Of a DNA stretch of 64,000 nt, positions 43,929 to 64,000 are shown one piece after another (position 1 is the first letter of the stretch; the number at the start of each line of letters is the position of its first letter). The stretch is taken from contig CAWDTA010000005.1 of assembly GCA_963805085.1 (NCBI GenBank), forward strand, positions 320,001 through 384,000, written 5' to 3'. The notes below the pieces were generated by a model. The model saw only the letters and a program-made list of their open reading frames with translations. It did not search any database and was not told the origin of the DNA. The position numbers and the translations under genes were made by a program. The DNA is from an uncultured Veillonellaceae bacterium (GTDB taxonomy: Bacteria; Bacillota; Negativicutes; JARBTT01).

Positions 43929-44141
43929 ATTAGAATTCTTCTGCATGAAGGCAACTAATTTTCTGAGGAGCTATTTATTCTATTTGGACTATGTGAAAGC
44001 CAATTTAATGCTATATTTTTGCAAAAAAATTTGAAATTTACTTAATTGTATATTTGCGCTTAGGAATGTAGTATAGTAAGATAAAATATGTAATGGAACC
44101 TTGTATGGGTTCAAAAAAGAAAACTAACTGGAGCGAATAAG

Positions 44142-45050: not shown

Positions 45051-45086
45051 TTTGCTGACATACTAGAATGGTAGTATATTAGCAAA
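45051..45086. promoter_or_regulatory. Candidate GntR operator upstream of uxuA
   Basis: Imperfect palindrome tttgctgacatacta-gaatgg-tagtatattagcaaa (13/15). Confidence 0.5.
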
Positions 45087-45113
45087 TGAAGATAGATATA
45101 TAGGGGGTATAGT

Positions 45114-46199
45114 ATGAAGATGACATTTCGCTGGTATGGGGAAAGAGATGACAAAATAACGTTGCAGCAGATTCAACAGATTCCTGGTATGCAAGGAATA
45201 GTAGGAGCTTTATTTGATATTCCTGTGGGGCAAGTATGGCCAATGGATAAAATTTTGCGTTTAAAATCGCAAATTGAAACGTATGGATTAGTCTTTGAGA
45301 CTGTTGAAAGTGTAAATGTACATGAAGATATCAAATTAGGACGCGTAAGCCGCGATCAATATATAGAAAATTATAATACGACTTTAAGAAATCTGGACAA
45401 AGCGGGTGTAAATGTTGTTTGTTATAATTTTATGCCGATTTTCGATTGGACGCGTACAGATTTGGCAAAACCTTTATATGATGGATCTACGGCATTGTCG
45501 TATGATTTTCATGTCATAAAAGATAAAGATCCAATTGCGCTGGCTAAAGAAATAGAAGAAAATAGTAATGGTTTTTTACTTCCGGGCTGGGAACCTGATC
45601 GGTTAAAAGAACTGAGACATTTATTTGAATTATACAGCGATGTGGATGAAGAAATGTTGTTTGCTAATCTAGCTTATTTTTTAAAGGCTGTAGTTCCAGT
45701 CGCTGAAGAATGTGGCATAAAGATGGCAATTCATCCAGATGACCCACCGTACTCTGTATTTGGCCTGCCGCGTATCGTAACGTCGAAAAAGAATTTGGAT
45801 AGAATTGTTTCTATGGTTGACAGTGCTAGTAATGCGTTGACGATTTGCAGTGGTTCTTTGGGAGCGAGCTTAGAAAATGATATCCCAGAAATTATCCGCT
45901 ATTTTGGCAAAAAAAATCGTGTAGCATTTGCGCATGTAAGAAATGTTCAAGTGCATGAACCTGGTGTTTTTAATGAAGTAGCGCATAAATCAAAGTATGG
46001 TTCTTTGGATATGTATGAAATTATGAAAGCTTTATATGATATAGATTTTAAAGGACCGATTCGTCCTGATCATGGTAGAATGATTTGGAATGAGGAAGGT
46101 CGTCCTGGGTATGGATTATATGATCGAGCTTTGGGGGCAAATTATTTAACTGGTTTATGGGATGCCATCTGTAGAGAAAATCATAGAACTGAATTTTAA
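45114..46199 (+). CDS. uxuA: Mannonate dehydratase
   Basis: MKMTFRWYG, ESVNVHEDIK, CYNFMPIFDWTRT, IHPDDPP, RPDHG, PGYGLYDRALG. Confidence 0.96.
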   Translation: MKMTFRWYGERDDKITLQQIQQIPGMQGIVGALFDIPVGQVWPMDKILRLKSQIETYGLVFETVESVNVHEDIKLGRVSRDQYIENYNTTLRNLDKAGVNVVCYNFMPIFDWTRTDLAKPLYDGSTALSYDFHVIKDKDPIALAKEIEENSNGFLLPGWEPDRLKELRHLFELYSDVDEEMLFANLAYFLKAVVPVAEECGIKMAIHPDDPPYSVFGLPRIVTSKKNLDRIVSMVDSASNALTICSGSLGASLENDIPEIIRYFGKKNRVAFAHVRNVQVHEPGVFNEVAHKSKYGSLDMYEIMKALYDIDFKGPIRPDHGRMIWNEEGRPGYGLYDRALGANYLTGLWDAICRENHRTEF

Positions 46200-46211
46200 G
46201 CAAAAGGAGAT

Positions 46212-47831: not shown

Positions 47832-47893
47832 GATACAGTAATGATAAATCAAGGTTAATAATATGTGTAAAAATATCGAGGGGAGAATAGGAA

Positions 47894-49441
47894 ATGTCAT
47901 TTTTGAATCGATTTATAGAAAATAAGAAAAAGAAAGTTACGTTATGGCGAGCTCTTAGTTATGGCGCTGCAGATATTATGGGTGGTAGCTCAAATATGTT
48001 AATTACAACATATTTAATGTTTTTTTATACAACATTTGTTGGCTTGACCCCAGTGGCAGCAGCATCAATTTTTGCTGGGGCAAAAATTATTGATGCGATA
48101 GCAAGTGTATGGATGGGAAGTCTTAGTGATACTTTCTATAATACGAAACTTGGAAAACTATTTGGACGTCGGCGCTTTTTCTTGCTCATTGGGTCTCCGC
48201 TTGTACTTACTTACGGATTATTATGGGTGAATGGACTCAATTATTGGTTTTATTTTTGTACTTATGTATTATTTGATATAGTAGCTACGGTTATTCTGAT
48301 TCCATTTGAAACTTTGCCGATGGAGATGACGACAGATTTTAATGAAAGAACATTGCTTTCAACTTGTAGAATGTTTATGTCAGGCGCTTTTAGTTCTATA
48401 TGTCCATTGATAGGTGCTGAAATTATTCATGTAATGGGAGAACATAATCCAAATGCTTATTTCGTTCTTGGTGGTAGCTTCGCAGTTTTCTATATGTGTT
48501 GCATATTTCTCACATATACATCTACATGGGAACGTAGCTATGAAGAATTTATGTCAACTAGAAAACTAGAACCACAAAAAATACAGCAATCCTTTTTTAG
48601 CTTTGAAGGGGTTAAGACACTGTGTCATATTGTTATTGACTATCTCTCTACCTTACGAGTGAGAGCTTTTAGACAACATTTAGCACTTTATTTATTAGGG
48701 GTTACTGCACAAGATATTTTTGTAACTGTGTTTATGTATTACGTTGTATTTGTAATTCATCAGACGACGTTATTTGGTGGATCGTTGCTGTCTATCAGTC
48801 TCATTAGTTTACCTTTGACGCCAATCAGTTATTGGTTATTCATTAGACTCGGACCGGCTAACTTATATAAAATTTGCTATACGATGGTTATTATGGGCTG
48901 CGTAGGCTATTATATTATGGCGATATCTCATGTAACAAATATTTTTTTATGGGCAATTATTATTTCAACGATTTATCAAATTGGTAAAGGATTTGTGTAT
49001 TCTAATCCATGGAATACATTCTCCTTTATTCCGGATGTGGATGAAATGATAACAACTAAGAGACGTGAAGGTTTGTTTGCTGCTATGATGACATTTTGCC
49101 GAAAACTGACGGGCTCAGTTGGTATGATAATTGTAGGAGCTGTCCTTGAATATGGCGGGTTTGTGAAACAAGCTAGTGAGCAACCTCCAACTGCTATTGA
49201 TAGTATTTTAAATATTCTACTTTTTGGTGTTGGTGGAATGACGTTTTTGGCATTGTTAGTAAGCTTTACTTTCACATTGAATAAAAAAAATCATGGGATT
49301 TTAATCGATGAAATACAACGGTTGAAGAATGGTGGATCGAAAGACGATGTTGATCCTAAAACAAAAAAAGTTGTCGAAAGCCTGACTGGTGTGGAATATC
49401 GTAAGCTTTATCCAACGCTCACTGATAAGCATAGCGCATAG
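47894..49441 (+). CDS. MFS GPH-family sugar/uronate transporter
   Basis: YGAADIMGG, FYTTFVGL, FGRRRFFLL, PDVDEMITTKRREG. Confidence 0.9.
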   Translation: MSFLNRFIENKKKKVTLWRALSYGAADIMGGSSNMLITTYLMFFYTTFVGLTPVAAASIFAGAKIIDAIASVWMGSLSDTFYNTKLGKLFGRRRFFLLIGSPLVLTYGLLWVNGLNYWFYFCTYVLFDIVATVILIPFETLPMEMTTDFNERTLLSTCRMFMSGAFSSICPLIGAEIIHVMGEHNPNAYFVLGGSFAVFYMCCIFLTYTSTWERSYEEFMSTRKLEPQKIQQSFFSFEGVKTLCHIVIDYLSTLRVRAFRQHLALYLLGVTAQDIFVTVFMYYVVFVIHQTTLFGGSLLSISLISLPLTPISYWLFIRLGPANLYKICYTMVIMGCVGYYIMAISHVTNIFLWAIIISTIYQIGKGFVYSNPWNTFSFIPDVDEMITTKRREGLFAAMMTFCRKLTGSVGMIIVGAVLEYGGFVKQASEQPPTAIDSILNILLFGVGGMTFLALLVSFTFTLNKKNHGILIDEIQRLKNGGSKDDVDPKTKKVVESLTGVEYRKLYPTLTDKHSA

Positions 49442-49639
49442 CAGTATACACGAAGTATAAGAATTTGGAAAGTACGAAATAAGAGGTTCCTTTTCTGAAG
49501 GAGTTGTTACAAATATTTTTGATATTGAGAATATTCAGAATAATATGGATTCTAGTATCAATAATAAAGTAGATATCGTAAAGTATGTTGTCAAAATTGC
49601 CAAATAAATAGTGGATGAAATTATGAGGGGAGATTTATT

Positions 49640-51691
49640 ATGAGTAGTAGTTACGAATGCTGGTTTAAATATGATCGTGTTTTAAATGAGAAAATAAAAG
49701 ATGATTATCAAAAATATGCTGGGGTAATTTTTTTTAAGGAAGGCAATGCAGTTTTACAGACTGCGGTAGATGAGTTGGTGTTTGCTTTTGAAAAAATATT
49801 TGGTCATAGGCCAATGATTATTAACGAAAAACCGGACACTCCCCATGTTTTTGTGGGGACGGCAGCAGTTGCTGCTGATGAGTATGCAATTGAGGTTCCT
49901 CGTCCAATTAAACGTGAAGGTTTTAGTATAAAAAGCTATAAGCAAGATAATCATGCAGTATTACAGCTTATTGGCAATGATCCGAATGGTGTAATTTACA
50001 GTGTATTTCATCTCATAAAAGCCATTTTGTGTGAGAAGACGCTGTCGGAAGCTGTAATCGAATCGACGCCGAAAAATCAGTTGCGGATGATCAATCATTG
50101 GGACAATATTAGCGGGGACGTTGAGCGAGGTTATGCAGGTCAATCACTTTTCTTTGCGAACAATGCTATTCGCAAAGATTATTCTAGAGTTAAAGATTAT
50201 GCCAGAATACTTGCCTCCATTGGCATCAATGCATTGACGATTAACAATGTAAATGTACATCAGGAAGAAGCGTATTTTATAACCGATAAATATTTACCTG
50301 ATATTGCTCAATTTGCTAATATATTTAGAAAGTATGGTATTAAGCTCTTTTTAAGCGTGAATTTCGCGGCACCGATTCGAATTGGCCATTTACCAACAGC
50401 AGATCCAGGGGATGAAGAAGTAAAAAGCTGGTGGAAGAAAAGTGTTCAGAACATATATAAATATATTCCTGATTTTGGCGGATTTTTAATTAAAGCGGAT
50501 TCTGAGCATGAAGCTGGGCCGTTTTCCTATGGACGAAATCATGCTGAGGGTGCTAATGTATTAGCGGCCGCCCTTAAACCCTTTGATGGCCTAGTCATTT
50601 GGCGGGGGTTTGTTTATAATTGTGAACTCAATTGGCGTAATCGCGAATTTGATCGAGCAAGGGCTTCTTATGATAATTTCAAGCCACTTGATGGACAATT
50701 CATAGACAATGTAATCATTCAGGTGAAAAATGGCCCTGTTGATTTTCAGATCAGAGAACCCGTGCATCCACTCTTTGGCGCTATGGAAAAGACCAATGAA
50801 CTTTTAGAGGTACAGATTACTCAAGAATATACTGGGCAACAGAAAGATCTTTGTTATTTAGTGCCGATGTGGAAAGAATGCTTGGATTTTGATACGTATG
50901 CCAAAGGGGAAAATTCACCGGTGAAAGATGTAATCAGCGGTGAACTCTTTAAGAATACATATGGTGGTATGGTTGGCGTTTCCAATATTGGCGATGATAA
51001 GAGCTGGACGGGAAATCCGCTTGCTCAGGCAAATTTGTATGGATTTGGCATGCTCGCATGGAATCCAGATTTTACTTCTGAAGCAATTGCTGAGGAATGG
51101 ACAAAGCTTACTTTTGGTTTGACGGAAAAAGTAGCAAAGATTATTGTTAATATGCTTGTTTGCTCACGGCGTGTTTATGAAGATTATACCGTGCCATTAG
51201 GAATTGGCTGGATGGTTAATCCTAACCATCACTATGGACCTAGTGTAGATGGCTATGAATATGCGCGCTGGGGTACATATCATTATGCGGATTTTAAAGG
51301 GATTGGTGTAGATCGTACAGTTGCGACCGGGACTGGTTATGCTGGTCAATATAGATCGCCAATGGCTGAAATCTATGAAGCAGAGGAAACATGCCCCGAA
51401 GAATTGTTGCTGTTTTTCCACCATGTATCATATCAGTACAAATTAAAGAATGGTCAAACATTGCTTCAATATATATATAATACTCATTTTAAAGGGGTAG
51501 AAGCCGTAAAAGGATTTATTGATGATTGGCAATTATTACAAGATTATGTAGAGCCAGAAATTTTTGATGCTGTTGCAAAGAGGTTTATAGCGCAACTGAA
51601 CAATGCAGAAGAATGGCGAGATGTAGTTAATACTTATTTTTATAGAAAAACAGGCATTAAGGATGATTTGGGAAGAAAGATATATGAATAA
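49640..51691 (+). CDS. aguA: Alpha-glucuronidase, GH67 (no signal peptide)
   Basis: RMINHWDN, ERGYAG, NNVN, KADSE, KNGPVDFQIREP, QITQEYTGQQ, PEELLLFFHH, EWRDVVNTYF. Confidence 0.93.
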   Translation: MSSSYECWFKYDRVLNEKIKDDYQKYAGVIFFKEGNAVLQTAVDELVFAFEKIFGHRPMIINEKPDTPHVFVGTAAVAADEYAIEVPRPIKREGFSIKSYKQDNHAVLQLIGNDPNGVIYSVFHLIKAILCEKTLSEAVIESTPKNQLRMINHWDNISGDVERGYAGQSLFFANNAIRKDYSRVKDYARILASIGINALTINNVNVHQEEAYFITDKYLPDIAQFANIFRKYGIKLFLSVNFAAPIRIGHLPTADPGDEEVKSWWKKSVQNIYKYIPDFGGFLIKADSEHEAGPFSYGRNHAEGANVLAAALKPFDGLVIWRGFVYNCELNWRNREFDRARASYDNFKPLDGQFIDNVIIQVKNGPVDFQIREPVHPLFGAMEKTNELLEVQITQEYTGQQKDLCYLVPMWKECLDFDTYAKGENSPVKDVISGELFKNTYGGMVGVSNIGDDKSWTGNPLAQANLYGFGMLAWNPDFTSEAIAEEWTKLTFGLTEKVAKIIVNMLVCSRRVYEDYTVPLGIGWMVNPNHHYGPSVDGYEYARWGTYHYADFKGIGVDRTVATGTGYAGQYRSPMAEIYEAEETCPEELLLFFHHVSYQYKLKNGQTLLQYIYNTHFKGVEAVKGFIDDWQLLQDYVEPEIFDAVAKRFIAQLNNAEEWRDVVNTYFYRKTGIKDDLGRKIYE

Positions 51692-51845
51692 AATGTAAAA
51701 TAATTAGGGGGAAATACTTTAAATTTAGCATTAATTTAGAAGAATATTATAGGAAGATAAAAGACTACATAATAATGATTATCAGTGACAAAGATACTTT
51801 GTCCGATATGTTTTTCATAATGAAAAATCATAAAAGGATGGATTT

Positions 51846-53204
51846 TTGATGAACATGATGATAAAAAATATGATTTATGGACTAATATCAGTGGTGATAT
51901 TTGGATTTTCTAGTACCGGATTTGCTCAGGCGAATCCATTTAGTGATGTTTCTAGAGGTAATTGGTCCTATGATGCTATAAAGCTCTTGATTCAGCAAAA
52001 CTTAGTTACGGGATATGATACTACAACGATAAAAGAAGATCAGATTTTGACAAGAGTTGAAATGGCGGTTATTGTAGCTAAGGCTATGTCCAAGGAAGAT
52101 ACGGCAAGCGACAATACAAAAAGGACTATTGATCAATTGGCAGTTGAATATGCAGAAGAATTAAAAGCTATTGGTGTAGTTCCAAAAGTTTCACAAAGTA
52201 AATTGGATAGGTTTACAGTAAATGGAATGGCTCGTGTTAGATTTGAAAAAGGAAAAACAAATGGTCCAACGGTAGATCAGGGGGGAATGGGAAAAAATTA
52301 TACACCCAATAGCCATATTAATCTAGATTTACTGTATAATTATCAACTTAATAAAGACTGGTCACTGTTTGGTGAATCTGAATTTGGTCGTCAGTTGAAT
52401 AGTGGTACGGAAAGTCAGACGTTGCAAAATTCTATATTTGAACAAATGTGTGTAATTGGCCCTGTAATCGGTATGAATGTAAAAATAGGTCGCTTTACCT
52501 CCGTTTCACCATATGGTATGGTATACGATGACAAAGTAACTGGTGTACAATTTACTTTCGGTAAAAAATTACAGACGATAATAGAATCAGGTAAAGCAAC
52601 TTCCACTGATGATGGGAATATTACTATTTATAGTGTTAATGATGGTACTGTTACTGCTACTAGTACTCCATACTCTTCTCAAATATATAATTCAGTTTTG
52701 CTTAAAACCCCCGTAAGTCCAGTGAGCAATGTGCAACTTGGTTATTATAAAATTGGTGCGTATTTAGGTCATGGGCAATCAGTGGTGCAAGATAAAAATA
52801 TAGGTTATGTTACAGGAGCATTTGATAGCAATTTTGCAAAAAATCTCAATTTACGTCTCGCTTTTAGTCATTCAAATGCAAGTGCCGTAAAAACGACTTG
52901 TTCTGATGGGACTACAATTGCAAGTAGCAAGACTTTGGGATATGTAGCTCGTATAGACTATAAAAAAGCAGATATTACTAAGATTGGAAGCTATGAGTGT
53001 TTTATTTTGTATAGAATGAGTCCACGATTATCCTGCTATAGCGATACTGATAACTGGCGGCAAAATGTAAAAGGTATTCGTGTTGGTTGCAAATATGTTA
53101 CTGATATCAATACAAAGCTTTACACCTGGTATACATTTGGTAAAGATGTCGACACAAATGCGAAGAATAACGAATACAGAGTAGAATATCAATTTTTTAT
53201 CTAA
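51846..53204 (+). CDS. SLH-domain outer membrane porin (OmpM-like)
   Basis: Signal peptide, NPFSDV..NWSYDAI..L...VTGY..LTRVEMA..VAKAM SLH, then beta-barrel-like region ending YRVEYQFFI. Confidence 0.85.
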   Translation: MMNMMIKNMIYGLISVVIFGFSSTGFAQANPFSDVSRGNWSYDAIKLLIQQNLVTGYDTTTIKEDQILTRVEMAVIVAKAMSKEDTASDNTKRTIDQLAVEYAEELKAIGVVPKVSQSKLDRFTVNGMARVRFEKGKTNGPTVDQGGMGKNYTPNSHINLDLLYNYQLNKDWSLFGESEFGRQLNSGTESQTLQNSIFEQMCVIGPVIGMNVKIGRFTSVSPYGMVYDDKVTGVQFTFGKKLQTIIESGKATSTDDGNITIYSVNDGTVTATSTPYSSQIYNSVLLKTPVSPVSNVQLGYYKIGAYLGHGQSVVQDKNIGYVTGAFDSNFAKNLNLRLAFSHSNASAVKTTCSDGTTIASSKTLGYVARIDYKKADITKIGSYECFILYRMSPRLSCYSDTDNWRQNVKGIRVGCKYVTDINTKLYTWYTFGKDVDTNAKNNEYRVEYQFFI

Positions 53205-53373
53205 TTTGATCTTACTCCAAAGAATGATGTATTTTCCTTTATTTATGAAAAGACTTAGATACTTAAATGCCAATTTCGAGATAAATCGAGTAGACGGTTT
53301 AAATAACCGCCCGCTCAATAGAAATTAATGTATTAATGAATATCTTTCACTGATTTATACTTAAGCGAAAGGA

Positions 53374-54690
53374 ATGGTTATAAATATGAGAAAAAGTTGG
53401 TTAATAAGGTTTCTATTCTGCGGATTATTTTTGGTACAGATTTTTCAAAGTCCGGCTTTGTGTGCAGAGATGAATATTTCAAAGGATAAGTTTTTCATTT
53501 TTAATCCTCCAGCAAATACTATTAATGAAGTTATGAAAACAGAGTCTATTTCAACGCAGACAATAGTCGCAAATAAATGGGTTGGTACTTGGGCAACTTC
53601 ACCATACTTGGTTACAGAGTCTAATATACCGCCTAGTCCTGGACTTTCAAACAACACCTTACGCCAGATTATTCGTGTTTCAATTGGTGGAAATCAAATT
53701 CGATTAAAATTTTCTAATCAATATGGTAAATCTCCAATTACAATGAATTCGGTGCATTTGGCTGTATCAGATGGTAAAAGTTCAATTAAATCTGACACAG
53801 ATAAAGTATTAACCTTTGGTGGAAATGAATCTGTAACAATTCCAGCAGGCCAAACGATTACTTCAGATACGCTTAATTATGGTTTAGAAAAACTGGCTAA
53901 TATGGCTATTACAATATATTTTGGTAGTACCCCAACTGATCTAACTGGTCATCCGGGGTCTAGAACAACATCGTACTTGCAGTCTGATAATGCAGTTACT
54001 GAGTCAAGCCTGCCCACAGCAGTAACTACTGATCACTGGTACTTTATAACAGGAATGGATGTACTGGCCTCAGACAAGGCAGTGGTTGCTTTGGGCGATT
54101 CAATTACCGATGGGAGAGGTACAACAACAAACGCAAATAATAGATGGACTGATATTTTTGCTTCCTGTTTACAGAAAAATCCTGCTACATCTAACGTCGC
54201 AGTGCTTAATCAAGGAATTGGTGGGAATTCTGTACTGTCAGGTGGATTAGGTCCAGTAGCGGTTAAGAGATTTGACCGTGATGTGTTGGAACAAAGTGGT
54301 GTTCGTTATCTAATAATATTCGAGGGTATTAACGATATTGGATCAGAGAAATCTACCCTAAAATTATCAACAGATTTGATAAATAGCTATAAGAATTTCA
54401 TTAGTAAAGCACATGAGAAAAATATCCTTGTATATGGAGCGACAATTTTGCCGTGTGGCGGTTCAGGATATTATAGTGAGCTTCATGAACAAATAAGGCA
54501 GGCAGTAAATGATTGGATTAGGACAAGTCGTCAATTTGATGCAGTAATCGATTTTGATGCCGCATTAAGAGATTCAAACGTTGCAACAAGACTTTTGAGT
54601 ACTTATGATAGTGGTGATCATTTACATCCTAATCCAGAAGGATATAAAAGAATGGCAGAAGCAATAGATCTAAATTTATTTTCTAAATAG
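53374..54690 (+). CDS. Secreted SGNH/GDSL hydrolase (probable carbohydrate esterase)
   Basis: WVGTWATSP, LGDSITDG, NQGIGGN, GIND, GDHLHPN. Confidence 0.9.
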   Translation: MVINMRKSWLIRFLFCGLFLVQIFQSPALCAEMNISKDKFFIFNPPANTINEVMKTESISTQTIVANKWVGTWATSPYLVTESNIPPSPGLSNNTLRQIIRVSIGGNQIRLKFSNQYGKSPITMNSVHLAVSDGKSSIKSDTDKVLTFGGNESVTIPAGQTITSDTLNYGLEKLANMAITIYFGSTPTDLTGHPGSRTTSYLQSDNAVTESSLPTAVTTDHWYFITGMDVLASDKAVVALGDSITDGRGTTTNANNRWTDIFASCLQKNPATSNVAVLNQGIGGNSVLSGGLGPVAVKRFDRDVLEQSGVRYLIIFEGINDIGSEKSTLKLSTDLINSYKNFISKAHEKNILVYGATILPCGGSGYYSELHEQIRQAVNDWIRTSRQFDAVIDFDAALRDSNVATRLLSTYDSGDHLHPNPEGYKRMAEAIDLNLFSK

Positions 54691-54958
54691 AGGCAAGAAA
54701 GGGGCTGTAGTGCGCCCGGGTAAGGCATAACCCGCACCCCTGTGGCAAACGTTAAAAAGATGTTTTATGGGTATAACGGCAAAATAGCAGGCAGAAAGCT
54801 AAAGGTCTTCAATCTTCTATTGCTAAGTGCAAGAATCATAAAGAAAAGTATAAAATAAATAGCTTGTATATTAACGGATTTAATTGTATACTATAATTCG
54901 TGTCAGTAACAAATATGTTCGCCGCTTTTGATGTAAAAAGAATAAATAATTAAAAGTG

Positions 54959-55002: not shown

Positions 55003-55079
55003 CGGGGCATGGCTCAGTTTGGTAGAGCACCTGGCTTGGGACCAGGGGGTCGCAGGTTCGAATCCTGCTGCTCCGACCA
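55003..55079 (+). tRNA. tRNA-Pro(TGG)
   Basis: Cloverleaf CGGGGCA...TGCTCCG-A-CCA; anticodon stem cctgg/ccagg, loop cttggga. Confidence 0.95.
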
Positions 55080-55085: not shown

Positions 55086-55162
55086 GCGCCTGTAGCTCAG
55101 TTGGATAGAGCAACGGCCTTCTAAGCCGTGTGTCGAGCGTTCGAATCGCCCCAGGCGCACCA
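55086..55162 (+). tRNA. tRNA-Arg(TCT)
   Basis: GCGCCTG...CAGGCGC-A-CCA; anticodon stem acggc/gccgt, loop cttctaa; one A-C mismatch in T-stem. Confidence 0.93.
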
Positions 55163-55426
55163 TTTGAAATCAAAGACTTTCAGTTTTTACTGAGAGCCTT
55201 TTTTGTTTTCGCGTGTCCAGCGGGACTGTGCTGGTGGGTGAAATCAAGGCGGGAAACTAGGTACATTTGTACTTGGTTTCCCGCCTTTTAGTTTCGAGAA
55301 TGGTTAAAAAACTTGCATTTTGATTGGTAAATATATTATGATATCATCATAATATAATAAAAAAATTATCAAAAAACAATCAAAACATTATCAAAAGTGA
55401 TGATGCTAAAAAAAGGAGAATTTATT

Positions 55427-55852
55427 ATGAAGTATGATAATAGTTGTCTTCATTGTACAAAAGATCAAAGGTTGCAGGATTTAATGATAGAAATAGCCGA
55501 ACTGGAGATATCAACTTTATATTTATTTAAGGAACAAACTTATAAAGGACGGTGTCTGTTATCATTCAAAGGTCATAAGAGTGAATTGTTTGAGCTTACT
55601 GATGAGGAATTAAAGCTGTATAGTCAAGATCTTGCTAAAGCATCCAAGGCTATCCAGCAGGCATGTAAGCCGGATAGAATCAACTATGGGGCTTATTCTG
55701 ACAATTTGCTGCATCTTCATTTTCACCTTGTTCCAAAGTACAAGGAAGGTTATTCTTGGGGCAGTACGTTTGAGATGATGCCTGCCAATAAGAAATTGCT
55801 CAGTGTTGTGGAATATGATCAGTTAATTCGTTTTATTAAAATTCATTTATAG
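55427..55852 (+). CDS. HIT-family protein
   Basis: C..C N-terminus, PDRINYGAYSD, HLHFHLVP histidine triad. Confidence 0.9.
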   Translation: MKYDNSCLHCTKDQRLQDLMIEIAELEISTLYLFKEQTYKGRCLLSFKGHKSELFELTDEELKLYSQDLAKASKAIQQACKPDRINYGAYSDNLLHLHFHLVPKYKEGYSWGSTFEMMPANKKLLSVVEYDQLIRFIKIHL

Positions 55853-55989
55853 GATAAATGAAATGAACGTATTAAATTTTATATAAATTTAGAATAAAGG
55901 GCGTTGCTTAAATGGAAGTATAAAACAATTTAAGAAATCCAAGCAGATATCGCCACTTTGGTGGCAAGAGTAAGAAATACCCAAGGGAT

Positions 55990-56170
55990 TGCGGCGGATA
56001 TTTTTAGTCAGGAAAAAGTTAAGCTTCAGAGGCTATGTGGATAGATGGTCATTTGAAACCTAAAATTCTTGCGCACCCTCTTCAGAGGATTGCACAAGAA
56101 GCTGGAATGAACATTCTAGAAGATTGTAAATTTATCATGGTAGAAGAGAATAAAATTGGTGCTGAAAAAC
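55990..56170 (+). pseudogene. Acylating aldehyde dehydrogenase internal fragment
   Basis: MWIDGHLKPKILAHPLQRIAQEAGMNILEDCKFIMVEENKIG.E resembles CoA-acylating ALDH; runs into tRNA repeat. Confidence 0.55.
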
Positions 56171-56255
56171 TTCTAAGCCGTGTGTTGAGCGTTCGGATCG
56201 TCTTAGGTGCAACATATGAAATCAAGGGTTCTAGCATTTTGCTAGAGCCTTTTTT
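56170..56255 (+). repeat. Degenerate tRNA-Arg(TCT) 3' half plus terminator, copy 1
   Basis: cttctaagccgtgtgttgagcgttcggatcgtcttaggtgcaaca-tatgaaatcaagggttctagcattttgctagagcctttttt. Confidence 0.85.
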
Positions 56256-56380
56256 GTTTTTCTTATAATGAAGAATTTATATTTTTAATAAACCAATCGG
56301 GATAGGATTAGCAAAGTAGAAGTAGAATACTAACGATAGTAATATAATCTGGTATAGGTGTGAAAGAGAGGCGATATGTT

Positions 56381-57358
56381 ATGGATAGGAAACAAAGCGA
56401 TAAAGAGATAAAAGAAATCTATTTGGCGGGAGGTTGTTTTTGGGGGACTGAGAAATATCTGTCTTTAGTCAAAGGAATCGAGTCTACCGAGGTTGGGTAT
56501 GCCAACGGCCGTACAGAAAATCCGAGTTATGAAGATGTCTGCACAGGGGAAAATGGTCATGCGGAAACGGTCAAGCTCCTCTACGATCCGGCGGTGATAA
56601 GTTTGGAATTCATTTTGAATCTTTTTTATAATGTGATCGATCCGGTGGCGAAGAACCAGCAGGGGAATGATATAGGAGTACAGTACCGTACCGGTATTTA
56701 TTATGTGGATGATAAGGATCAAGAGCGGATTTTGAATTCTTTACAGACCTTGCAAGAGGGATATGATAAGCCGATTGCCATCGAGGTCGAACCGCTGCGA
56801 AACTACTATGCCGCAGAAGAGTGGCATCAGAAATATCTAGATAAGAATCCGCAGGGATATTGCCATATTCCCAGTAGAAAATTTAGCCAGGCTGAGCAGG
56901 CGATAGATCCTTCGGTGCTCTATCAAGTAAAATCAAAGTCTGTATTAAAAAACACGCTCACGGAGATGCAATATGCGGTGACCCAAAAGAATGCCACTGA
57001 ACCGCCTTTTCAAAATCCGTTTTATAATAATTTTCGGAAAGGTATCTATGTTGATGTAACGACAGGAGAACCGCTTTTTGTTTCGACTGACAAATTTGAA
57101 TCCGGCTGTGGCTGGCCTAGCTTTTCTAGACCGATAAGATCGGAGAGTCTTCATGAAGTAATGGATCCGAGTCATGGCATGGAGCGGATAGAAGTGCGCA
57201 GCAAGACGGGAAATACCCATCTTGGCCATGTTTTTACGGACGGGCCAAAGGCTTCCGGTGGGTTAAGGTACTGCATCAACAGTGCAGCGCTAATGTTTAT
57301 TGGTAAGGAAGAAATGGAAGAAAAAAATTATGGATATTTGCTGCCACTGTTGGATTGA
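56381..57358 (+). CDS. msrAB: Bifunctional methionine sulfoxide reductase MsrA/MsrB
   Basis: [23 protein letters not shown]; [27 protein letters not shown]. Confidence 0.96.
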
Positions 57359-58782
57359 TCTATGGATTCATTTGGAGGAATAGTAGTTCTTAAACCTATT
57401 TGATTGCCTCGTGACCAGCAGACAATTGCCCCGATCGCTCCTATGATCGCTGCTACAAGATAGGTATCATGTAATGCAAGTGTAAAGCTCGCAGTAGTAT
57501 CGTTAAGAAGTGAATATCTAGCTAACTGATTGCTAAATACAGCACCACTAACAGCAACCCCCATCACTTGCCCAATATTTCGCATTAAAGCCAATGTACC
57601 AGATGCGACTCCAATATTATTTTTGATTACGCTCCCCATAATGGCATTATTGTTTGGTGCAAGAAATAATCCAGTACCAAGACCGACTAAGGCCAGGCCA
57701 AAGGCATTCATAACGTAGGTAAAGTTTTCAGTGTGACCGAGAAGTATGATGCCACTACAAATTATTACCATCCCAGCAGAAGTAAGTAATCGCGAACCAA
57801 AACGGTCGGATAGTGCCCCTGCCACCGGGGAAGCTAGCATCATCGCTCCAGGAAAAGTACTCATCAATAAACCAGCTGTTCTTGTTGATAGGGTTAAAAA
57901 GCCCACAAGGTAAAAAGGCATAAGAAAAGTTACGGTATACTGAGTCAAATAATTAATCAAAGCAGCAAGATTGCCTGCTAAAAAGGCTCGATTTTTGAAG
58001 AGCCCAAGGTTTAACATTGGGTGACCGCATTTGATTTCGATATAAATGAACATCGCAAATGAAATTAACGCGATAAAAAATAAACTTATAACAATAGACG
58101 AGTGCCAGCCCCATATATGTCCATGACTTACAGCTAGTAAAAACGTACTAAGACAGGTAAAAATAGTAACTGCTCCGCCAATATCGAACTTCTGAGGCTT
58201 TGTAATTTTTATCGGGAGTATTTTCCACGACCAAATTGTGCTAATGATGCCTATAGGAATGTTAATAATGAATATAGATTGCCAACCATAGGTTCCAACT
58301 AAAATCCCGCCAAGGGATGGACCGGCAGCAAGACCAAGCGAAACAAACATAGCGTTAATGCCAATAGCTTTTCCTCTCTCTGAAGGCTGGAAGGTATCAG
58401 TTATAATAGCTTGAACAACAGCCAAGATCGCCCCTGCGCCAATTGCCTGCAGTCCCCGCGAGGCGATAAGTACCCATATATTTGGTGATAAACTATTTAA
58501 TGCTGACGCTACGGTAAAGATGGCAAAACCACCGACAAAGACTGGGCGGTGACCGTACATATCACCAATTCTACCATAGGTTAAAAGTAGGCTGCTAATA
58601 AGTAGCAGATAAACTATTACTACCCACTCAGTATTGGTAACGGTTGTATGGAAATAGGTTGTAATTTCTGGTAAAGCAATGTTTACAATACTGGCATCAA
58701 GTGTGGACATAAAGACACCAAGTGCTGTCGTTGAATGGATGAGCCACTTACGAACTTCTGGAGTTTTCAATAAGTATAGCAT
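57328..58782 (-). CDS. MFS transporter, DHA2 (EmrB/QacA-like)
   Basis: [37 protein letters not shown]; about 14 TMs. Confidence 0.92.
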
Positions 58783-58905
58783 GTATTATTCCTCCAATTT
58801 GGTTAATGTAGCGCGTCATAGCACCGTATAATATATTAAACTCCTAATGGTAATGTTCCATATAGACAAGCGACTCAGCTATAAAATTAGCAAAGCTTCC
58901 ATACA

Positions 58906-58999
58906 AACGGCACTTCAAGTCGTCGTGTGTCGAGCGTTCAAATCGGCTCAGGCGTGCCATATGAAATCAAGGGTTCTAGCTTTGCTAGAACCTTTTTTT
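58906..58999 (+). repeat. Degenerate tRNA-Arg(TCT) 3' half plus terminator, copy 2
   Basis: aacggcacttcaagtcgtcgtgtgtcgagcgttcaaatcggctcaggcgtgcca-tatgaaatcaagggttctagctttgctagaaccttttt. Confidence 0.85.
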
Positions 59000-59077
59000 G
59001 CTTATTAAACTAAGCTGTAATTATCTATACTTTGGTATATAATGATAAAGTAATTTAGTAGAATAGGAGCAATATGA

Positions 59078-60685
59078 ATGGAAGCACGGTCTATCTTAAA
59101 TAATAAATATTATTTGTACATGACAGAATTTTTTGCCGGAATGTCAGTAATGGCGGTGGAACTTGGAGCAAGCAGACTTTTAGCACCGTATTTTAGTTCT
59201 TCACAGATTGTATGGACAATTATTATCGGAACTATCATGATTGCAATGGCGCTGGGGAATATCTGGGGTGGTAGGAGTGCGGATAAGGATCCCAATCCGG
59301 ATAATTTGTATACGCGTATGATTATTGCTGCTCTATGGATTGCCGCAATACCGTTAGTGGGCAAATATGTAATTTTAGCCGTGTCAGCAGCACTTGTTTT
59401 AACCATAAACAATAGTTTTTTAATTTTAGCAGCCTTTTTATCCTGTATGATCATCTTTGTATTTCCGCTGTTCTTGTTGGGGACAGTTACCCCTTCTCTG
59501 GTGAAATATACGGTAGATAGCTTAGATGACAGTGGAAAGATCGTGGGTACACTGGTTGCGATTAATACAATTGGAAGCATCATTGGTACATTTTTACCTA
59601 CCTTTGTTACGATTCCGGCAGTTGGGACATCCATTACATTCTTAATATTCTCGGGGATTCTTTTGGCACTTGGTCTGATTTACTTTATAGACAAAAAAGC
59701 GAAGAAAGTGAAATGTATCATTGGTGTTATTTTATTCCTTGTTTGCAGTATATTTGGTTCTTCAGACAGTTTAGCTTTTTGGGAAAACAATCTCTTATAT
59801 GAAGGAGAATCTATTTATAATTATTTGCAGGTGAAGGAAATCGATAATAGTGTAATTCTTTCTACAAATGTACTTTTTGGCGTTCAATCTATTATGAAAA
59901 AAGATGATAGCTTGACGGGAATGTATTATGATTATGCACTTGCTGCACCTGTCATGTCTGGAATTGGGACGAAAGAAAATACAAAAATTTTAGTACTCGG
60001 TATGGGAACAGGGACTTATGCAAAACAATGTCAAAAATATTTTACCAATGCATCTATTGAAGGCGTAGAAATCGATCAGAAAATAACTGATTTGGCGAGT
60101 AAATATTTCGAGCTTCCCGATAACATAAAAGTGACTACTTATGATGGTCGGGCGTACTTGAATGCTACAGATAAAAAATATGATGTAATTATGGTAGACG
60201 CGTACCAGGACATAACGATACCTTTTCAGATGTCTTCCATAGAATTCTTTACTATGGTTAAGGAGCACTTAACAAAAGATGGCATTATGGTTGTCAATAT
60301 GAATATGCATACCGAAAAAGAGGGAAATATTAATCAGTATCTGTCAGACACAATCGCAAATGTTTTTAATGTGGTATATACAGTGAATGTAGATGGAACA
60401 ACCAACAGAGAATTGTTTGCAACACAGAATAGGGAGGTTGCTAAAAATTTTGAGCAGAATACTGTGGAATTAAGCAATTATAAATTAAAGGCATTAATGC
60501 ATAATGTTGCAGGCAATATGGATAGATACATAAAGGGAGAGTATCTCTTGACTGATGATAAAGCACCAGTAGAACTTTTAGGAATGCAGGTAATCGATGA
60601 ATTAATCCAGCATGAAATAAGTTATTACAAAGAAGTATTCAAAAAAGAAGGGATAAATGGATTACTAAAAAATATATTATTCTGA
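59078..60685 (+). CDS. Fused membrane domain/spermidine synthase-like SAM-dependent transferase
   Basis: N-terminal TMs (VMAVELGASRLLAPYF), LVLGMGTG, VEID, DGRAYL, YDVIMVDAY, LTDDKAPVE. Confidence 0.85.
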   Translation: MEARSILNNKYYLYMTEFFAGMSVMAVELGASRLLAPYFSSSQIVWTIIIGTIMIAMALGNIWGGRSADKDPNPDNLYTRMIIAALWIAAIPLVGKYVILAVSAALVLTINNSFLILAAFLSCMIIFVFPLFLLGTVTPSLVKYTVDSLDDSGKIVGTLVAINTIGSIIGTFLPTFVTIPAVGTSITFLIFSGILLALGLIYFIDKKAKKVKCIIGVILFLVCSIFGSSDSLAFWENNLLYEGESIYNYLQVKEIDNSVILSTNVLFGVQSIMKKDDSLTGMYYDYALAAPVMSGIGTKENTKILVLGMGTGTYAKQCQKYFTNASIEGVEIDQKITDLASKYFELPDNIKVTTYDGRAYLNATDKKYDVIMVDAYQDITIPFQMSSIEFFTMVKEHLTKDGIMVVNMNMHTEKEGNINQYLSDTIANVFNVVYTVNVDGTTNRELFATQNREVAKNFEQNTVELSNYKLKALMHNVAGNMDRYIKGEYLLTDDKAPVELLGMQVIDELIQHEISYYKEVFKKEGINGLLKNILF

Positions 60686-60733
60686 ATGAAAAAAAGTGAA
60701 AAATAAGAAATTATTTACTCATGGCCTAAAATT

Positions 60734-60817
60734 TTCTGAGCTATGTGTCGAGCGTTCAGATTGCCAAAGCGCTCCATATGAAATCAAGGGTTCTAGCATT
60801 TTGCTAGAATCCTTTTT
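60734..60817 (+). repeat. Degenerate tRNA-Arg(TCT) 3' half plus terminator, copy 3
   Basis: ttctgagctatgtgtcgagcgttcagattgccaaagcgctcca-tatgaaatcaagggttctagcattttgctagaatccttttt. Confidence 0.8.
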
Positions 60818-61017
60818 GTTAGAAAACAGAAGCGGCCATGTTTACATGCTTTCCGCATATTAGTTTAAATTGCCCTCTTACAAGGTTTTAGGTTTATTTT
60901 TCACGCTAACAACATATTAATTAACTTAAAATTAATATGTTGTTAACTAACTATTAAAAGCCCGGAAGTATAATATAGAGGATAATAGTTATTCGACAGA
61001 AATAGAGGGGAAGTAAA

Positions 61018-61389
61018 TTGAAAGTACTAATTGTCGACGATTCAAGTTTTGCTAGGCGAACACTAGAAAAATTTCTCAAAAAAAATTTTCCTAATATAGT
61101 AATTACTTTAGCTTGCAATGGGCGAGCAGGTTGTATTGCATTTGCCCGCGAAAAACCGGATATTATATTTACTGATCTCTTAATGCCTGAAATGGTTGGG
61201 CAGGAGATGATCAAACAAATACGAGAAATCGATGAACAGGTTCCGATTTTTGTTTTAACAGCTGATATTCAGCAGGTCACTAAATTTGAGCTGATTCAGT
61301 ACGGTATTACCGCATTTATCAATAAGCCGCTAACCAGCGAAAATGGTGAACTTATCAAGCAAAAGATAGGGGGGCGAATTGATGCTTAG
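61018..61389 (+). CDS. Single-domain response regulator (CheY-like)
   Basis: VLIVDDS, FTDLLMPEM, LTAD, INKP. Confidence 0.92.
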   Translation: MKVLIVDDSSFARRTLEKFLKKNFPNIVITLACNGRAGCIAFAREKPDIIFTDLLMPEMVGQEMIKQIREIDEQVPIFVLTADIQQVTKFELIQYGITAFINKPLTSENGELIKQKIGGRIDA

Positions 61390-62023
61390 TGAAATGCAAA
61401 AAGACGTGCTGACGGAAGTCGTGAATATAGCGATTGGTCGGAGCGCGGCTCTCCTATCTGAAATGACAAGACAAAAAGTGGAATTATCTGTTCCTTGTAT
61501 TGATCTTCTTACAATAAGGGATGCAGAATCCCCCATTTTTTCACAGATTTCCGTTGATAGGGGGCATATCATCTCTTCGTCGATCAAATTTGGAACTGAA
61601 TTTAAAGGAAAAGCGTTTTTACTATTTCCGGCTCGTCAGGCTAAGCTTTTAGTTGGTTTGTGCCTAGGCGATAGTGTCGATGAAACTAATATAAATGATA
61701 AGAATTTATTAGATACTGATTTTGATGTTTTAATGGAGATTAGTAATGTTATTTTGAACGCTATTATGGGGGGGATGGGGAACTTTCTTGAATCCAAGCT
61801 AGTATACTCGCTACCCGAGATAGAAATGATGTTCGTCTCCGCAGAGGGGCAAAGGGGATTGCTGCAGGGACAAATGTATGTACTGGTATTGCAAGCAAAA
61901 CTTGATTTAGCAGATAAGCAGTTTGAAGGCACGATTTTGATTGCCTTAAGCTTAGATTCGGTAGCGCAGTTAATCAGCCGAATTGATCGATTGGTGGGGA
62001 ATTTGCATGAATCAGGTATTTGA
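61382..62023 (+). CDS. CheC-like phosphatase
   Basis: Two D...E..N motifs: DVLTEVVNIAIGRSA, DVLMEISNVILNA. Confidence 0.88.
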   Translation: MLSEMQKDVLTEVVNIAIGRSAALLSEMTRQKVELSVPCIDLLTIRDAESPIFSQISVDRGHIISSSIKFGTEFKGKAFLLFPARQAKLLVGLCLGDSVDETNINDKNLLDTDFDVLMEISNVILNAIMGGMGNFLESKLVYSLPEIEMMFVSAEGQRGLLQGQMYVLVLQAKLDLADKQFEGTILIALSLDSVAQLISRIDRLVGNLHESGI

Positions 62024-62969
62024 TCATATTTTGGATCATCTGAATTTGGGAGTCTTACTTGTTGACAATAACCACAGTGTGCTAGTCTGGAATAGCTGGC
62101 TGGAACGAGCAAGCGGCGTCCCAAAAGACGAAGTGATTGGCAGACCGCTTGGTGAGATTTGCCCATGCTTTCAAAAAAATAGCTTCAAAGATATGCTGAA
62201 CAATGCCATCGTCAATGGTGAGCATCGATTTTGCTCGGGCATGTTACATAATGGATTTATTTATCCCAAGGATAGGGAGGATATCACTGAAAAAGGTCGG
62301 CAAAACATGCAGATTGAGGCATTTTACCAAGACGGGGAAGTTTTCGCGTTGATCCAGATCAGCGACATTACCAGTCAGTATCGACGGATACACTGCTTGA
62401 AACACTTGGTCAAAGAGCTAGAAGTCGACTATGAATCTATTAAGGAATCGGAGGAGCATGCTAAACGCAATGCTTTGTATGATCCTTTGACGGGATTGTG
62501 CAATCGAACCTTATTTTACGATCGACTCAGGCATTCAATAGATCAGGCTGGTAGGAGTGGACGCCTTGTAGCTTTGCTATTTTTAGATTTAGATGGTTTT
62601 AAATCGGTGAATGATTCGATGGGGCATCTCAGCGGCGATTTATTGCTTAAAGAGGTTGCTAACCGCTTGAATACAGTTGTGCGAAAAACGGATACCGTCT
62701 GTCGATTAGGTGGCGACGAATATACAATTATTCTTCCTGACATAAAATCGAAAAATGATGTTGAAATGACTGCCAAAGATATCCGCAGGTTATTATCGGA
62801 CGAATTTAATCTGGGGGATAAAAACATATTTATTACTGTCAGTATTGGGATTAGCCTTTTTCCTGTAGATGGAGTCGATTCGGAAAATCTGGTAAAACAT
62901 GCTGATAGTGCTATGTATTCAGTAAAGAGCACTGGTAAAAACGGTTATCAGTTTTACTCGATCAAATAG
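62007..62969 (+). CDS. PAS-domain diguanylate cyclase
   Basis: PAS (WNSWLERASG), DPLTGLCNR, LDLDGFKSVND..GH..GD, RKTD I-site, GGDEY. Confidence 0.9.
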   Translation: MNQVFDHILDHLNLGVLLVDNNHSVLVWNSWLERASGVPKDEVIGRPLGEICPCFQKNSFKDMLNNAIVNGEHRFCSGMLHNGFIYPKDREDITEKGRQNMQIEAFYQDGEVFALIQISDITSQYRRIHCLKHLVKELEVDYESIKESEEHAKRNALYDPLTGLCNRTLFYDRLRHSIDQAGRSGRLVALLFLDLDGFKSVNDSMGHLSGDLLLKEVANRLNTVVRKTDTVCRLGGDEYTIILPDIKSKNDVEMTAKDIRRLLSDEFNLGDKNIFITVSIGISLFPVDGVDSENLVKHADSAMYSVKSTGKNGYQFYSIK

Positions 62970-63102
62970 CCTGTTCCCACGCCCATCCCTTAGTTGGTTT
63001 TAACTCCAAATTAATATTGCTATAATTAAAATTGATAATAATTATAGCAATATTAAGATGAAAATATAAATATAAATTCTGTTAGGTCAATAATATATAT
63101 TT

Positions 63103-63175
63103 GGCAGACTTACTGAAAAGTAAGGACGTAAAGTTGTGAGTCTGAGGACGATTGTCTATAATTGCTAGGTTTCCC
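63103..63175 (+). ncRNA. c-di-GMP-I riboswitch, divergent copy
   Basis: GGCAGACUUACU-GAAA-AGUAAGGACGUAAAGUUGUGAGUCUGAGG...AUAAUUGCUAGGUUUCC upstream of MCP-like gene. Confidence 0.7.
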
Positions 63176-63315
63176 TTGGAAGAGGTACTGAAACCAAGGT
63201 ATTTATCTGGGCTTTTGGTGTTTACATTCGGGGGAAAAAAATTTAGGGGAGTTTGTTCATTAAATCAGTTACAAACAAACTCTTGTCTAATTTTTAATAA
63301 AGGAGAATAATACTA

Positions 63316-64000
63316 ATGACTATTAAAGTTAAAACAATTATATTGCTGTTAATCGCTCTTTTTGTAACAGGTTTAATTGTCGGTGGGTCAGGTATGTATG
63401 TTATCTATAAAAAAACATTGAAAAACACTCAAGTAAGTATGTACGGACAGGCGTCTCAGCTTGCTGGCGGGGTCAATGAATTAGTTTCTACCTTTGCGAA
63501 AAGTGGAAAATTTTTTGGTGAAGATACCGATCTTAAGTTAGGAGATACTGCTCGCATACAAGGAAAGCTCAATACCTATTTTGCCACGTCCTGGGGAGTC
63601 GATCGTCTCGTGTTTATCAATACAGCGGGTGAGAGAGTTGCCTCAGCTCCACACGATGCTAAAAGTCTGGGAGGTAGTGTGGCTGACCGCGCTTTCTTTA
63701 AAGACACAATGACGGATCAGAAGTCGCATATCAGCGATGTGATAGTAAACAGGGTAAATGGAATGCCTTCCGTCATTGTTACACATCCCATAAAGGCGGA
63801 AGACGGCAAAATGGCAGGAATTGTTGTGCAGTCAGTCTCTTTGGACATCCTGCAAAATCTCTTGGCACCAGTTAAAGTTGGCGAAGGCGGAGTGGCCGGC
63901 ATAGTTGCCCAAGATGGATCGATACTAGCTCATACGGACAAAGATTTAATCAAAGAACAAAAAAAACTTCCTGAAGATATATTACAAACGCTGAAGGAAA
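63316..64000 (+). CDS. dCache-domain chemoreceptor, probable MCP (truncated by window end)
   Basis: AGGAG RBS, N-terminal TM, ADRAFFK...ISDVIVNRVNG.PSVIVTHPI, VKVGEGG...DGSILAH; frame open to end. Confidence 0.8.
   Translation, partial: MTIKVKTIILLLIALFVTGLIVGGSGMYVIYKKTLKNTQVSMYGQASQLAGGVNELVSTFAKSGKFFGEDTDLKLGDTARIQGKLNTYFATSWGVDRLVFINTAGERVASAPHDAKSLGGSVADRAFFKDTMTDQKSHISDVIVNRVNGMPSVIVTHPIKAEDGKMAGIVVQSVSLDILQNLLAPVKVGEGGVAGIVAQDGSILAHTDKDLIKEQKKLPEDILQTLKE

Follow-up and report, generated by a model that had tools for sequence, protein, structure and literature searches.

The stretch analyzed here, referred to as the window, comprises 64,000 nucleotides of contig CAWDTA010000005.1 (C5:320001-384000) from an uncultured Veillonellaceae bacterium (GCA_963805085.1; G000). 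The assembly holds 4.21 Mb in 5 contigs at 37.4% G+C and is 83% complete by marker count. Near the 3′ end of the window, a tRNA-Pro(TGG)/tRNA-Arg(TCT) gene pair is followed by six same-strand copies of the tRNA-Arg(TCT) 3′ half, each continuing into a trailer and a hairpin (f1 to f6; Table 1). All six lie 3′ of the intact gene, which is the sole gene with this anticodon among the 77 tRNA genes of the assembly. Gene and copies together occupy 28.5 kb on the plus strand, and the array continues past the 3′ end of the window. The segments between successive repeats, here called islets, are unrelated to one another.

A direct-repeat search recovered the window copies (tRNA 3′ half plus trailer) at 56170, 58915, and 60734. 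Over 93 nt, two of them were 73% and 60% identical to the intact gene, and a 32-nt repeat family in the window showed 91, 72, and 81% identity. A repeat profile built from units of G000 and its relatives was run over the entire 4.2-Mb assembly and matched the copies of the array with E-values from 7e-31 to 3.6e-22. The tRNA-Arg 3′-half repeats noted in a preliminary description of the window are real, and the array is twice as long as the window shows, with three more copies (f4 to f6) past 64 kb, where further repeats had been thought worth seeking. Beyond the array, the profile found one lone unit copy (C2:632914-632972, E = 6e-11); its remaining matches were other tRNA genes or fragments with similar hairpins. 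Given six strong, clustered matches and one on C2, the repeat is therefore far beyond chance and not dispersed, but tied to this tRNA gene, as had been supposed. A dispersed repeat was rejected as a candidate: the 19-mer TGAAATCAAGGGTTCTAGC with up to three mismatches and the unit profile returned only the array and the one C2 copy. Exact matches to TGAAATCAAGGGTTCTAGC occur in the genome only at the three window copies, and at only 2 loci across the genome-contig collection.

In most copies, the match to the tRNA opens with the 5′-most base of the 7-nt anticodon loop (CTTCTAA) and extends through CCA. It begins at exactly this base in f1, f4, and three fragments of relatives (G004_f1, G019_f1, and G019_f3), and at position 29 in the relative G018; f2 and the C2 copy retain an altered anticodon stem-loop. 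The cores are 76-87% identical to the tRNA (6-11 differences in 45). The preliminary description had held the terminator part to be better conserved than the tRNA part, which applies to f1, f2, and f3 and fails for f4, f5, and f6 (Table 1).

Table 1. Features of the tRNA-Arg(TCT) locus and of a second tRNA-Arg locus (window numbering unless a contig is given; tRNA part, matches to tRNA-Arg(TCT); trailer, matches to f1)
Feature	Position	Strand	tRNA part	Trailer	Content and basis
tRNA-Pro(TGG)	55003..55079	+			First of the conserved tRNA-Pro/tRNA-Arg pair; ARAGORN; Rfam tRNA, 69.5 bits
tRNA-Arg(TCT)	55086..55162	+			Intact; proposed integration target (attL-type site); ARAGORN, Rfam
Trailer TTTGAAATCAA with hairpin CTTTCAG..CTGAGAG and T-run	55163..55204	+			Sequence; terminator-like site 55177-55196
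Second TGAAATCAAGG with 19-bp hairpin	55239..55290 (hairpin part to 55287)	+			Motif and terminator scan
Islet 1	gene to f1				HIT-like protein and frame-broken stretch
HIT-like protein, 151 aa	55397..55852	+			Pfam HIT, E 3.9e-5
Non-coding/pseudogene stretch	55880..56149	+			Frame-broken; three-frame translations
f1	56150..56262	+	38/45	reference	21 nt of truncated P arm, tRNA 3′ half, trailer, hairpin
Islet 2	f1 to f2				msrAB and MFS transporter
msrAB, fused methionine sulfoxide reductase	56360..57358	+			Pfam PMSR, SelR
MFS transporter	57328..58782	-			Pfam MFS_1, E 1.8e-52
f2	58909..59008	+	39/45	38/41	Altered anticodon stem-loop AACGGCACTTCAAGTCGTC retained, then trailer and hairpin; no P arm
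Islet 3	f2 to f3				SpeE-like protein
535-aa protein	59078..60685	+			C-terminal spermine/spermidine-synthase-like methyltransferase domain; Pfam Spermine_synth, E 1.1e-15
f3	60713..60827	+	34/45	39/41	~13 nt P-arm remnant GGCCTAAAATT, tRNA 3′ half, trailer, hairpin
Islet 4 (f3 to f4)	61018..64000, on to f4	+			Response regulator, CheC/CheX-like, PAS-GGDEF, riboswitch, chemoreceptor; Pfam
f4	C5:385555-385669 (65555 in window numbering)	+	39/45	34/41	Profile; beyond the window
Islet 5	f4 to f5				ABC transporter, 5′-truncated flavodoxin-like gene, AraC, GH31, MFS, histidine kinase, 5′-truncated SDR
f5	C5:398654-398764 (78654 in window numbering)	+	36/45	32/41	Profile; beyond the window
Islet 6	f5 to f6				Dynamin-like GTPase
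f6	C5:403606-403714 (83606 in window numbering)	+	36/45	35/41	Profile; beyond the window
tRNA-Arg(TCT) to tRNA-Arg(ACG) cluster	C5:375162-429035				Counterparts in relatives: L014/L015, L019/L021
tRNA-Arg(CCG) 3′ fragments	C5:316693-316737; C5:336568-336605 (window 16568-16605)				

The array itself lacks mobility genes. No recombinase, phage, or transfer domain was detected by Pfam in any open reading frame (ORF) of at least 60 aa at C5:375163-408814, and tblastn with three integrases of relatives (E ≤ 1) gave no match in the array. Genome-wide, PF00589 had three matches (C5:313 kb, C2:943 kb, and a fragment on C4) and PF00239 had two (C2:200 kb and C5:703 kb), none of them in the array. The earlier statement that the cassettes come without integrase, phage, or conjugation genes thus agrees with both searches, and the integrase that might have lain past 64 kb was not found there by Pfam (to C5:408814) or tblastn.

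Pfam also confirmed most of the cassette contents given in the preliminary description (HIT, msrAB, MFS, spermidine-synthase-like, and signalling genes). Its aldehyde dehydrogenase (ALDH) fragment at 55880..56149 was not confirmed: the stretch had no Pfam match at E ≤ 10, and a weak tblastn match to an ALDH gene of the same genome (E 0.04) was not reproduced by BLASTP. Repeat units were found beside cargo homologues at none of 86 other loci; the three profile matches in this set were the tRNA locus of G019 and two weak ones to the tRNA part. Among these cargo proteins, the SpeE-like protein of islet 3 has a homologue in G013 without a repeat behind it. In islet 4, a c-di-GMP-I riboswitch (63093-63177; RF01051, 42.5 bits) lies directly 5′ of a dCache-HAMP-MCP chemoreceptor gene (63316 to C5:385283).

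We compared the region against 40 relatives. The tRNA-Arg(TCT) gene of G000 is 100% identical to those of G004, G018, and G019; the tRNA-Pro/tRNA-Arg pair is also present in G004 and G019, and in G018 a tRNA-Gly sits between the two. In G019, the pair is followed by three fragments that bound intervals of 26.6, 8.8, and 7.5 kb. These comprise (i) a prophage-like interval with a 400-aa tyrosine integrase adjoining the gene and with ERF, DUF3990, and DUF932 genes; (ii) an interval with a 416-aa integrase and HTH_17, Cro/C1-type HTH, HTH_36, and TrbL genes; and (iii) an interval with a kinase-helicase and a PLD protein but without an integrase. G018 carries an element of 46.7 kb that encodes a 433-aa integrase and has at its ends a perfect 49-nt repeat of tRNA positions 29-77. 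The three integrases are mutually only 23-27% identical, and several lineages therefore use the tRNA-Arg(TCT) site. In a survey of the class in which at most four candidates per genome were scored, the repeat unit was present in at least 12 of 201 genomes, including G000, and only G000, G019, and G004 showed multiple copies. The closest named matches to the unit came from a Pelosinus sp. metagenome-assembled genome (MAG) and Pectinatus brassicae. No full unit was found in G001, a member of the same genus whose assembly (280 contigs, 84% complete) is uninformative on this point.

The integrase-free interval of G019 (L016 6110-13606) encodes a 1195-aa fusion of a protein kinase with an AAA_11/AAA_12 helicase, a PLD-like protein, and a 464-aa protein without a family; by its domains, it looks like defence-type cargo.

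The flanks of the copies link the array to these elements. To its left, f5 is flanked by sequence homologous to the P arms (the element side of the attachment site) ahead of G019 f2 (71.5% over 151 nt), G019 f3 (75%, 169 nt), and a copy in G027 (78.5%, 219 nt). G019 f2 is the right end of the 8.8-kb element encoding the 416-aa integrase. The motif TTGTCCACCAAT lies in the arm ~125 nt upstream of the core. P-arm remnants of 13-28 nt are retained at f1, f3, and f4 and none at f2 and f6, and a metagenome contig (L030) does retain the arm at its ortholog of f6. On the right, f4 and f6 have ~55 nt in common. The 11-mer TTGTCCACCAA has 14 exact occurrences in G000, 3 of them within 130 nt of f4, f5, and f6, and is doubled immediately right of G019 f1. 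Tandem integration of related elements yields P arm-core-P′ arm junctions of this kind.

Loss of most of an element is seen in G004. Its single islet of 1.5 kb, with a DUF3990 gene and a 91-aa ORF, matches the right end of the 26.6-kb G019 element over 534 nt at 82% identity; erosion is therefore observed directly, with ~25 kb including the integrase lost. The earlier proposal that the cassettes were eroded from larger elements is thereby substantiated, in a relative. In G000, the truncated flavodoxin-like and SDR genes of islet 5 point to erosion too.

G000 and G004 are collinear both to the left and to the right of the locus, with 70-97% amino acid identity. The msrAB gene and a purple acid phosphatase gene, adjacent in G004, are 31.4 kb apart in G000 with f2 to f6 between them; therefore, either some integrations used displaced copies or msrAB moved. 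In G004, the stretch that separates f1 from the phosphatase gene contained no extra decayed copies. The conserved tRNA-Arg(ACG)-His-Gln-Lys cluster lies ~2 kb from tRNA-Arg(TCT) in G018 (if its 46.7-kb element is not counted), 18 kb away in G004, and 54 kb away in G000, and the whole interval may be old accreted DNA. The copy f1 is orthologous to one in the Pelosinus sp. MAG (L027), which precedes a GNAT gene and msrAB. The MAG copy shares the derived GTCTTAGGTG with f1; since the two have four derived bases in common, f1 is old. Between the two, the first 34 trailer bases are unchanged and the tRNA part differs at 4 of 45 positions.

Among close relatives, msrAB was found in at least four genomic contexts (window 56263-57358; L015 1656-2633; L029 6402-7541; L030 9660-10996), always with the same ~100-nt leader. 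Its product is 75% identical to that of G004 and 94% identical to that of L027. In L028 and L029, the hairpin alone, without a tRNA part, precedes msrAB. Just 5′ of tRNA-Pro, an 11-kb segment (window 43873-54880) that includes SLH-domain and GDSL-lipase genes has no counterpart in G004, which has 5.8 kb of other DNA there.

Strain variation was followed in Logan contigs from four soil/groundwater runs (X1 to X4), aligned at ≥85%. In X1 and X3, cover is lost past ~60821, and X4 reaches 62916; missing cover is not evidence. Inside f1 (between 56200 and 56250), ~3.5 kb of additional DNA is present in one contig of X1 (4765 nt) and in one of X2. Three joints were found at the repeats: (i) 55164 to 56217 (X1, X2, and X3; shorter side 38 nt), which sets the tRNA end directly onto the f1 trailer; (ii) 60680 back to 56165 (X1; 47 nt), the form expected of a circle or a reordering; and (iii) 56257 to 59002 (X1; 30 nt). 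A further joint in X1 to X3 contigs corresponds to a 115-nt deletion (55978-56094) in related strains, and in the metagenome relative L030 a different gene lies ahead of the f6 ortholog. The strain comparison envisaged in the preliminary description thus bore fruit in part: the contigs differ at the repeats, but the joints have short sides (30-47 nt) at an 85% threshold, and other species may contribute to them. We read these contigs as apparent variation located at the repeats and not as proof of present mobility.

The trailer and the hairpin were considered separately. Behind the intact gene, 55163..55204 is the predicted terminator of the current tRNA operon, and its hairpin is unlike that of the displaced copies. 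The second TGAAATCAAGG with a hairpin at 55239, reported earlier, is present as well. This segment may be a very decayed, internally deleted extra copy, but the assignment is unsupported, and the profile search at E ≤ 10 missed the segment. A candidate seventh copy (55207-55250) was rejected, its likeness being by eye only and without a profile match. The three window hairpins score as intrinsic terminators in a scan that returned 15 sites against 4.5 expected in shuffles. The TCTAGC..GCTAGA hairpin is also found behind tRNA-Leu(GAG), tRNA-Leu(CAG), a Leu-like fragment, and a tRNA-Arg(CCG) fragment, and is therefore a common type of post-tRNA terminator in this genome and not a mark of the array.

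The 9-mer TGAAATCAA occurs five times in the window, all on the plus strand between 55165 and 60787; shuffles lead one to expect 1.98, and 5 of 100 shuffles reach five. With 151 occurrences genome-wide, the 9-mer alone is therefore weak evidence. Put forward in the preliminary description as a candidate recombinase-binding or processing signal, it lies in the trailer and, in some relatives, falls within the att identity block, which spans tRNA positions 33-88; it is absent 3′ of the intact gene in G004, G019, and G018. The idea that it might also follow other tRNA genes did not hold, as the first 40 nt behind each of the other 76 lack it; spacers of the similar form TTTGAAAT are present.

Two further loci concern the same trailer and hairpin. 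In Pectinatus brassicae (L026 2001-2080), an intact tRNA-Arg(TCT) is followed by the 19-mer trailer and, past the left half of the hairpin, by three GGTTGCAAC repeats, which suggests an element whose identity block would stop within the hairpin. At C5:1231-3200, tRNA-Leu(GAG) and tRNA-Leu(CAG) each have a TCTAGC..GCTAGA hairpin, and a Leu-like 3′ fragment with that hairpin follows ~0.9 kb on; this may be another mini-islet. The lone unit copy on C2, which is Arg(TCT)-like and has a changed anticodon loop, neighbors a small ORF and genes for a DUF2971 protein, a Mutator-family transposase, and a RES-domain protein, and is probably a relic of another element.

We interpret the locus as a relic array that arose through tandem site-specific integration, with the att site in the anticodon loop, and then lost its integration modules, which left islets resembling cis-mobilizable elements (CIMEs). 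We give this reading a probability of about 0.72. Circular elements with tyrosine integrases would have recombined repeatedly with tRNA-Arg(TCT) or with a displaced copy of its 3′ half. In at least one family, attP would have consisted of a ~130-nt P arm with TTGTCCACCAAT sites, tRNA positions 32-77, a ~45-nt trailer with the terminator hairpin, and a P′ arm, with strand exchange at the anticodon loop. At each event, the gene would have been rebuilt from the copy of the element, and the prior 3′ half and trailer displaced to the far end of the insert. Trailer and hairpin would travel with the repeat because they would supply the terminator for the rebuilt tRNA operon. Later internal deletions would have removed integrase, excisionase, and replication modules and clipped most arms. 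The residue would be cargo (msrAB and MFS, SpeE-like, c-di-GMP/chemotaxis, ABC transporter and GH31, dynamin-like GTPase) between drifting att copies. What we infer here is in which order the events took place, where the crossover fell, and what the hairpin does; serial accretion at one tRNA, as first suggested in the preliminary description, is supported by the anticodon-loop register and by the tyrosine-integrase elements of relatives at the exact site.

Several points weigh against this interpretation. Copies farther from the gene are not more decayed (38, 39, 34, 39, 36, and 36 of 45 from f1 to f6); a simple order with the newest insert next to the tRNA therefore fails, and integration into displaced copies must be assumed. 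The msrAB gene lies inside the array and yet is backbone-like in G004, and its various contexts imply that rearrangement other than att recombination also shaped the region. With a GC content of 34.5-41.3% against 37.4% for the genome, the islets bear no compositional sign of foreign origin. The integrase negative covers the assembly and, at 83% completeness, not the whole organism. Finally, strain differences exactly at the repeats could be due to ongoing mobility rather than to relics.

The last two points lead to an alternative that we regard as rather unlikely, namely an array that is still active and is mobilised in trans in the manner of CIMEs or integrons, with its integrase encoded in the unassembled 17%, by a transient int2-type helper, or in a neighbouring island. 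The extra DNA in f1 (X1 and X2), the three joints at the repeats, and the differing gene ahead of the f6 ortholog in L030 would fit such activity, as would islet 5, which has a P′ arm remnant at f4 and the full P arm at f5. Yet the joints are short and may stem from other species, and the strain differences could equally be old gains or losses. Each core has 6-11 mismatches to the tRNA in 45 positions, and the arms are mostly clipped or gone. Homologues of the cargo at other loci come without the repeat, and the assembly yielded no cognate integrase. Two full-length tyrosine integrases do reside at islands of tRNA-Arg(CCG) and tRNA-Gly(CCC), 39% and 51% identical to the two of G019, but the arm motif was not found beside the att sites of either tRNA. 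As their own att sites lack this motif, these integrases are unlikely to act as helpers, judging from the sequences of the sites. Trans mobilisation, if true, would provide a simple system to study gene capture without a resident recombinase. A bolder version would make the locus a working capture platform, in which integrase-less cassettes, each ending in a ~220-nt attP-like module of P arm, tRNA 3′ half, and terminator, are inserted, excised, and reordered at tRNA-Arg(TCT) and its copies by integrases of transient int2-type helpers. We think this improbable; if true, it would predict strain-specific cassette orders in soil and groundwater and amount to a tRNA-based integron analogue in Negativicutes.

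The tRNA-Arg(CCG) gene (C5:297504-297578) marks a second hotspot, with displaced 3′ fragments ~19 and ~39 kb downstream (Table 1). The integrase of its island (C5:312.7-313.9 kb) is the one that is 39% identical to the 416-aa integrase of G019.

It is also conceivable, though very improbable, that the units serve as a functional RNA or a regulatory module, in the form of a tRNA-like 3′ element plus terminator behind operons, and spread by duplication and not by integration. The better preservation of trailer and hairpin than of the tRNA part in f1 to f3, the 34 unchanged trailer bases of f1 relative to the Pelosinus MAG, and the terminator scores of all three window hairpins are in line with this. 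However, the trailers of f4 to f6 are no better kept than their tRNA parts, f2 has no plus-strand gene ahead to terminate, and the hairpin type follows other tRNA genes, as an ordinary terminator would. No Rfam family matched the repeat units at E ≤ 1, copies lie solely behind tRNA-Arg(TCT) apart from the one on C2, and the repeat is explained by the integrase elements of relatives. Duplication of a local segment, or unequal homologous recombination, in the tRNA region and without mobile elements would produce direct and clustered copies such as those observed. Against it, the start of every copy is at the anticodon loop or adjoins it, tRNA-Pro and the tRNA 5′ half are missing from all of them, the inter-repeat segments are mutually unrelated, and left flanks are homologous to element arms in other genera; we consider this explanation barely credible.

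As a relic array, the locus is a clear, well-delimited case of a single-copy tRNA gene seeding a growing variable region. Recurrent landing at one tRNA gene is an already-known route of bacterial genome growth, of which this is a long integrase-free example in a little-studied lineage. Adaptive-looking cargo (oxidative-damage repair, transport, c-di-GMP/chemotaxis) can outlast the elements that delivered it.

The closest counterparts are the CIMEs of integrative and conjugative (ICE) and integrative and mobilizable (IME) element families. In the accretion scheme given in PMC5704250 (which cites Pavlovic et al. 2004 and Bellanger et al. 2011), a decayed element keeps its att copies and further elements integrate there, giving rise to tandems. 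Integration at tRNA 3′ ends, loss of integration and transfer genes, retained att copies, and tandems are features in common with the present array. In the present array, Pfam and tblastn found no recombinase or transfer domain. Each islet has att-like copies on both sides, but these match the tRNA at only 34-39 of 45 positions, with arms complete only at f5 and partial at f4 and f6. Unlike the CIMEs described there, which reside in a streptococcus, the Negativicutes-type host studied here has six successive integrase-free islets with degenerate att copies and no functional partner in the array. Dehalococcoides offers a second parallel: according to PMC3146451, many direct repeats of the ssrA 3′ end within 100 kb bound tandem, strain-variable islands, some without an integration module and proposed to be CIMEs. 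Repeats of a small-RNA 3′ end downstream of the gene, with conserved bases on the element side, are common to both. There, however, the target is tmRNA, the repeat has 20 bp in the T-loop, the recombinase is a CcrB-like serine recombinase, and sixteen islands keep the integration module; here, the block has 45 nt from the anticodon loop, relatives use tyrosine integrases, and no islet keeps the module. Similarly, in the tRNA-adjacent tycheposon islands of Prochlorococcus, as portrayed in bioRxiv 10.1101/2020.12.28.424599, elements are split only by partial tRNAs, and scattered ones are interpreted as older integrations pushed inward. Their element and integrase families differ from ours, and fragmented integrases are reported there, whereas none was found here.

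Among the tDNA islands of Islander (PMC4383910), an anticodon-centred att site is given for 2083 of 3919 islands and tandems of three or more number 4. As in those islands, a regenerated tRNA and a displaced 3′ fragment mark the ends, the fragments lie in the same orientation and on the same replicon as the intact gene, and they end at the canonical crossover sublocation in the anticodon loop. All six islets lack an integrase, and because Islander, by the same source, requires one for each island of a tandem, it would filter this array out; none of the six islets would be picked up by an island finder with an integrase requirement. With integrons, finally, the locus has in common a one-directional array of short, unrelated, mostly promoter-poor cassettes split by a repeat that resembles a recombination site. 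It differs in having no adjacent intI, attI, or Pc, the nearest PF00589 match lying 61 kb upstream in the tRNA-Arg(CCG) island. Where integrons use a folded attC, the repeat here is a tRNA 3′ half with a terminator, and the whole elements of relatives carry their own integrases.

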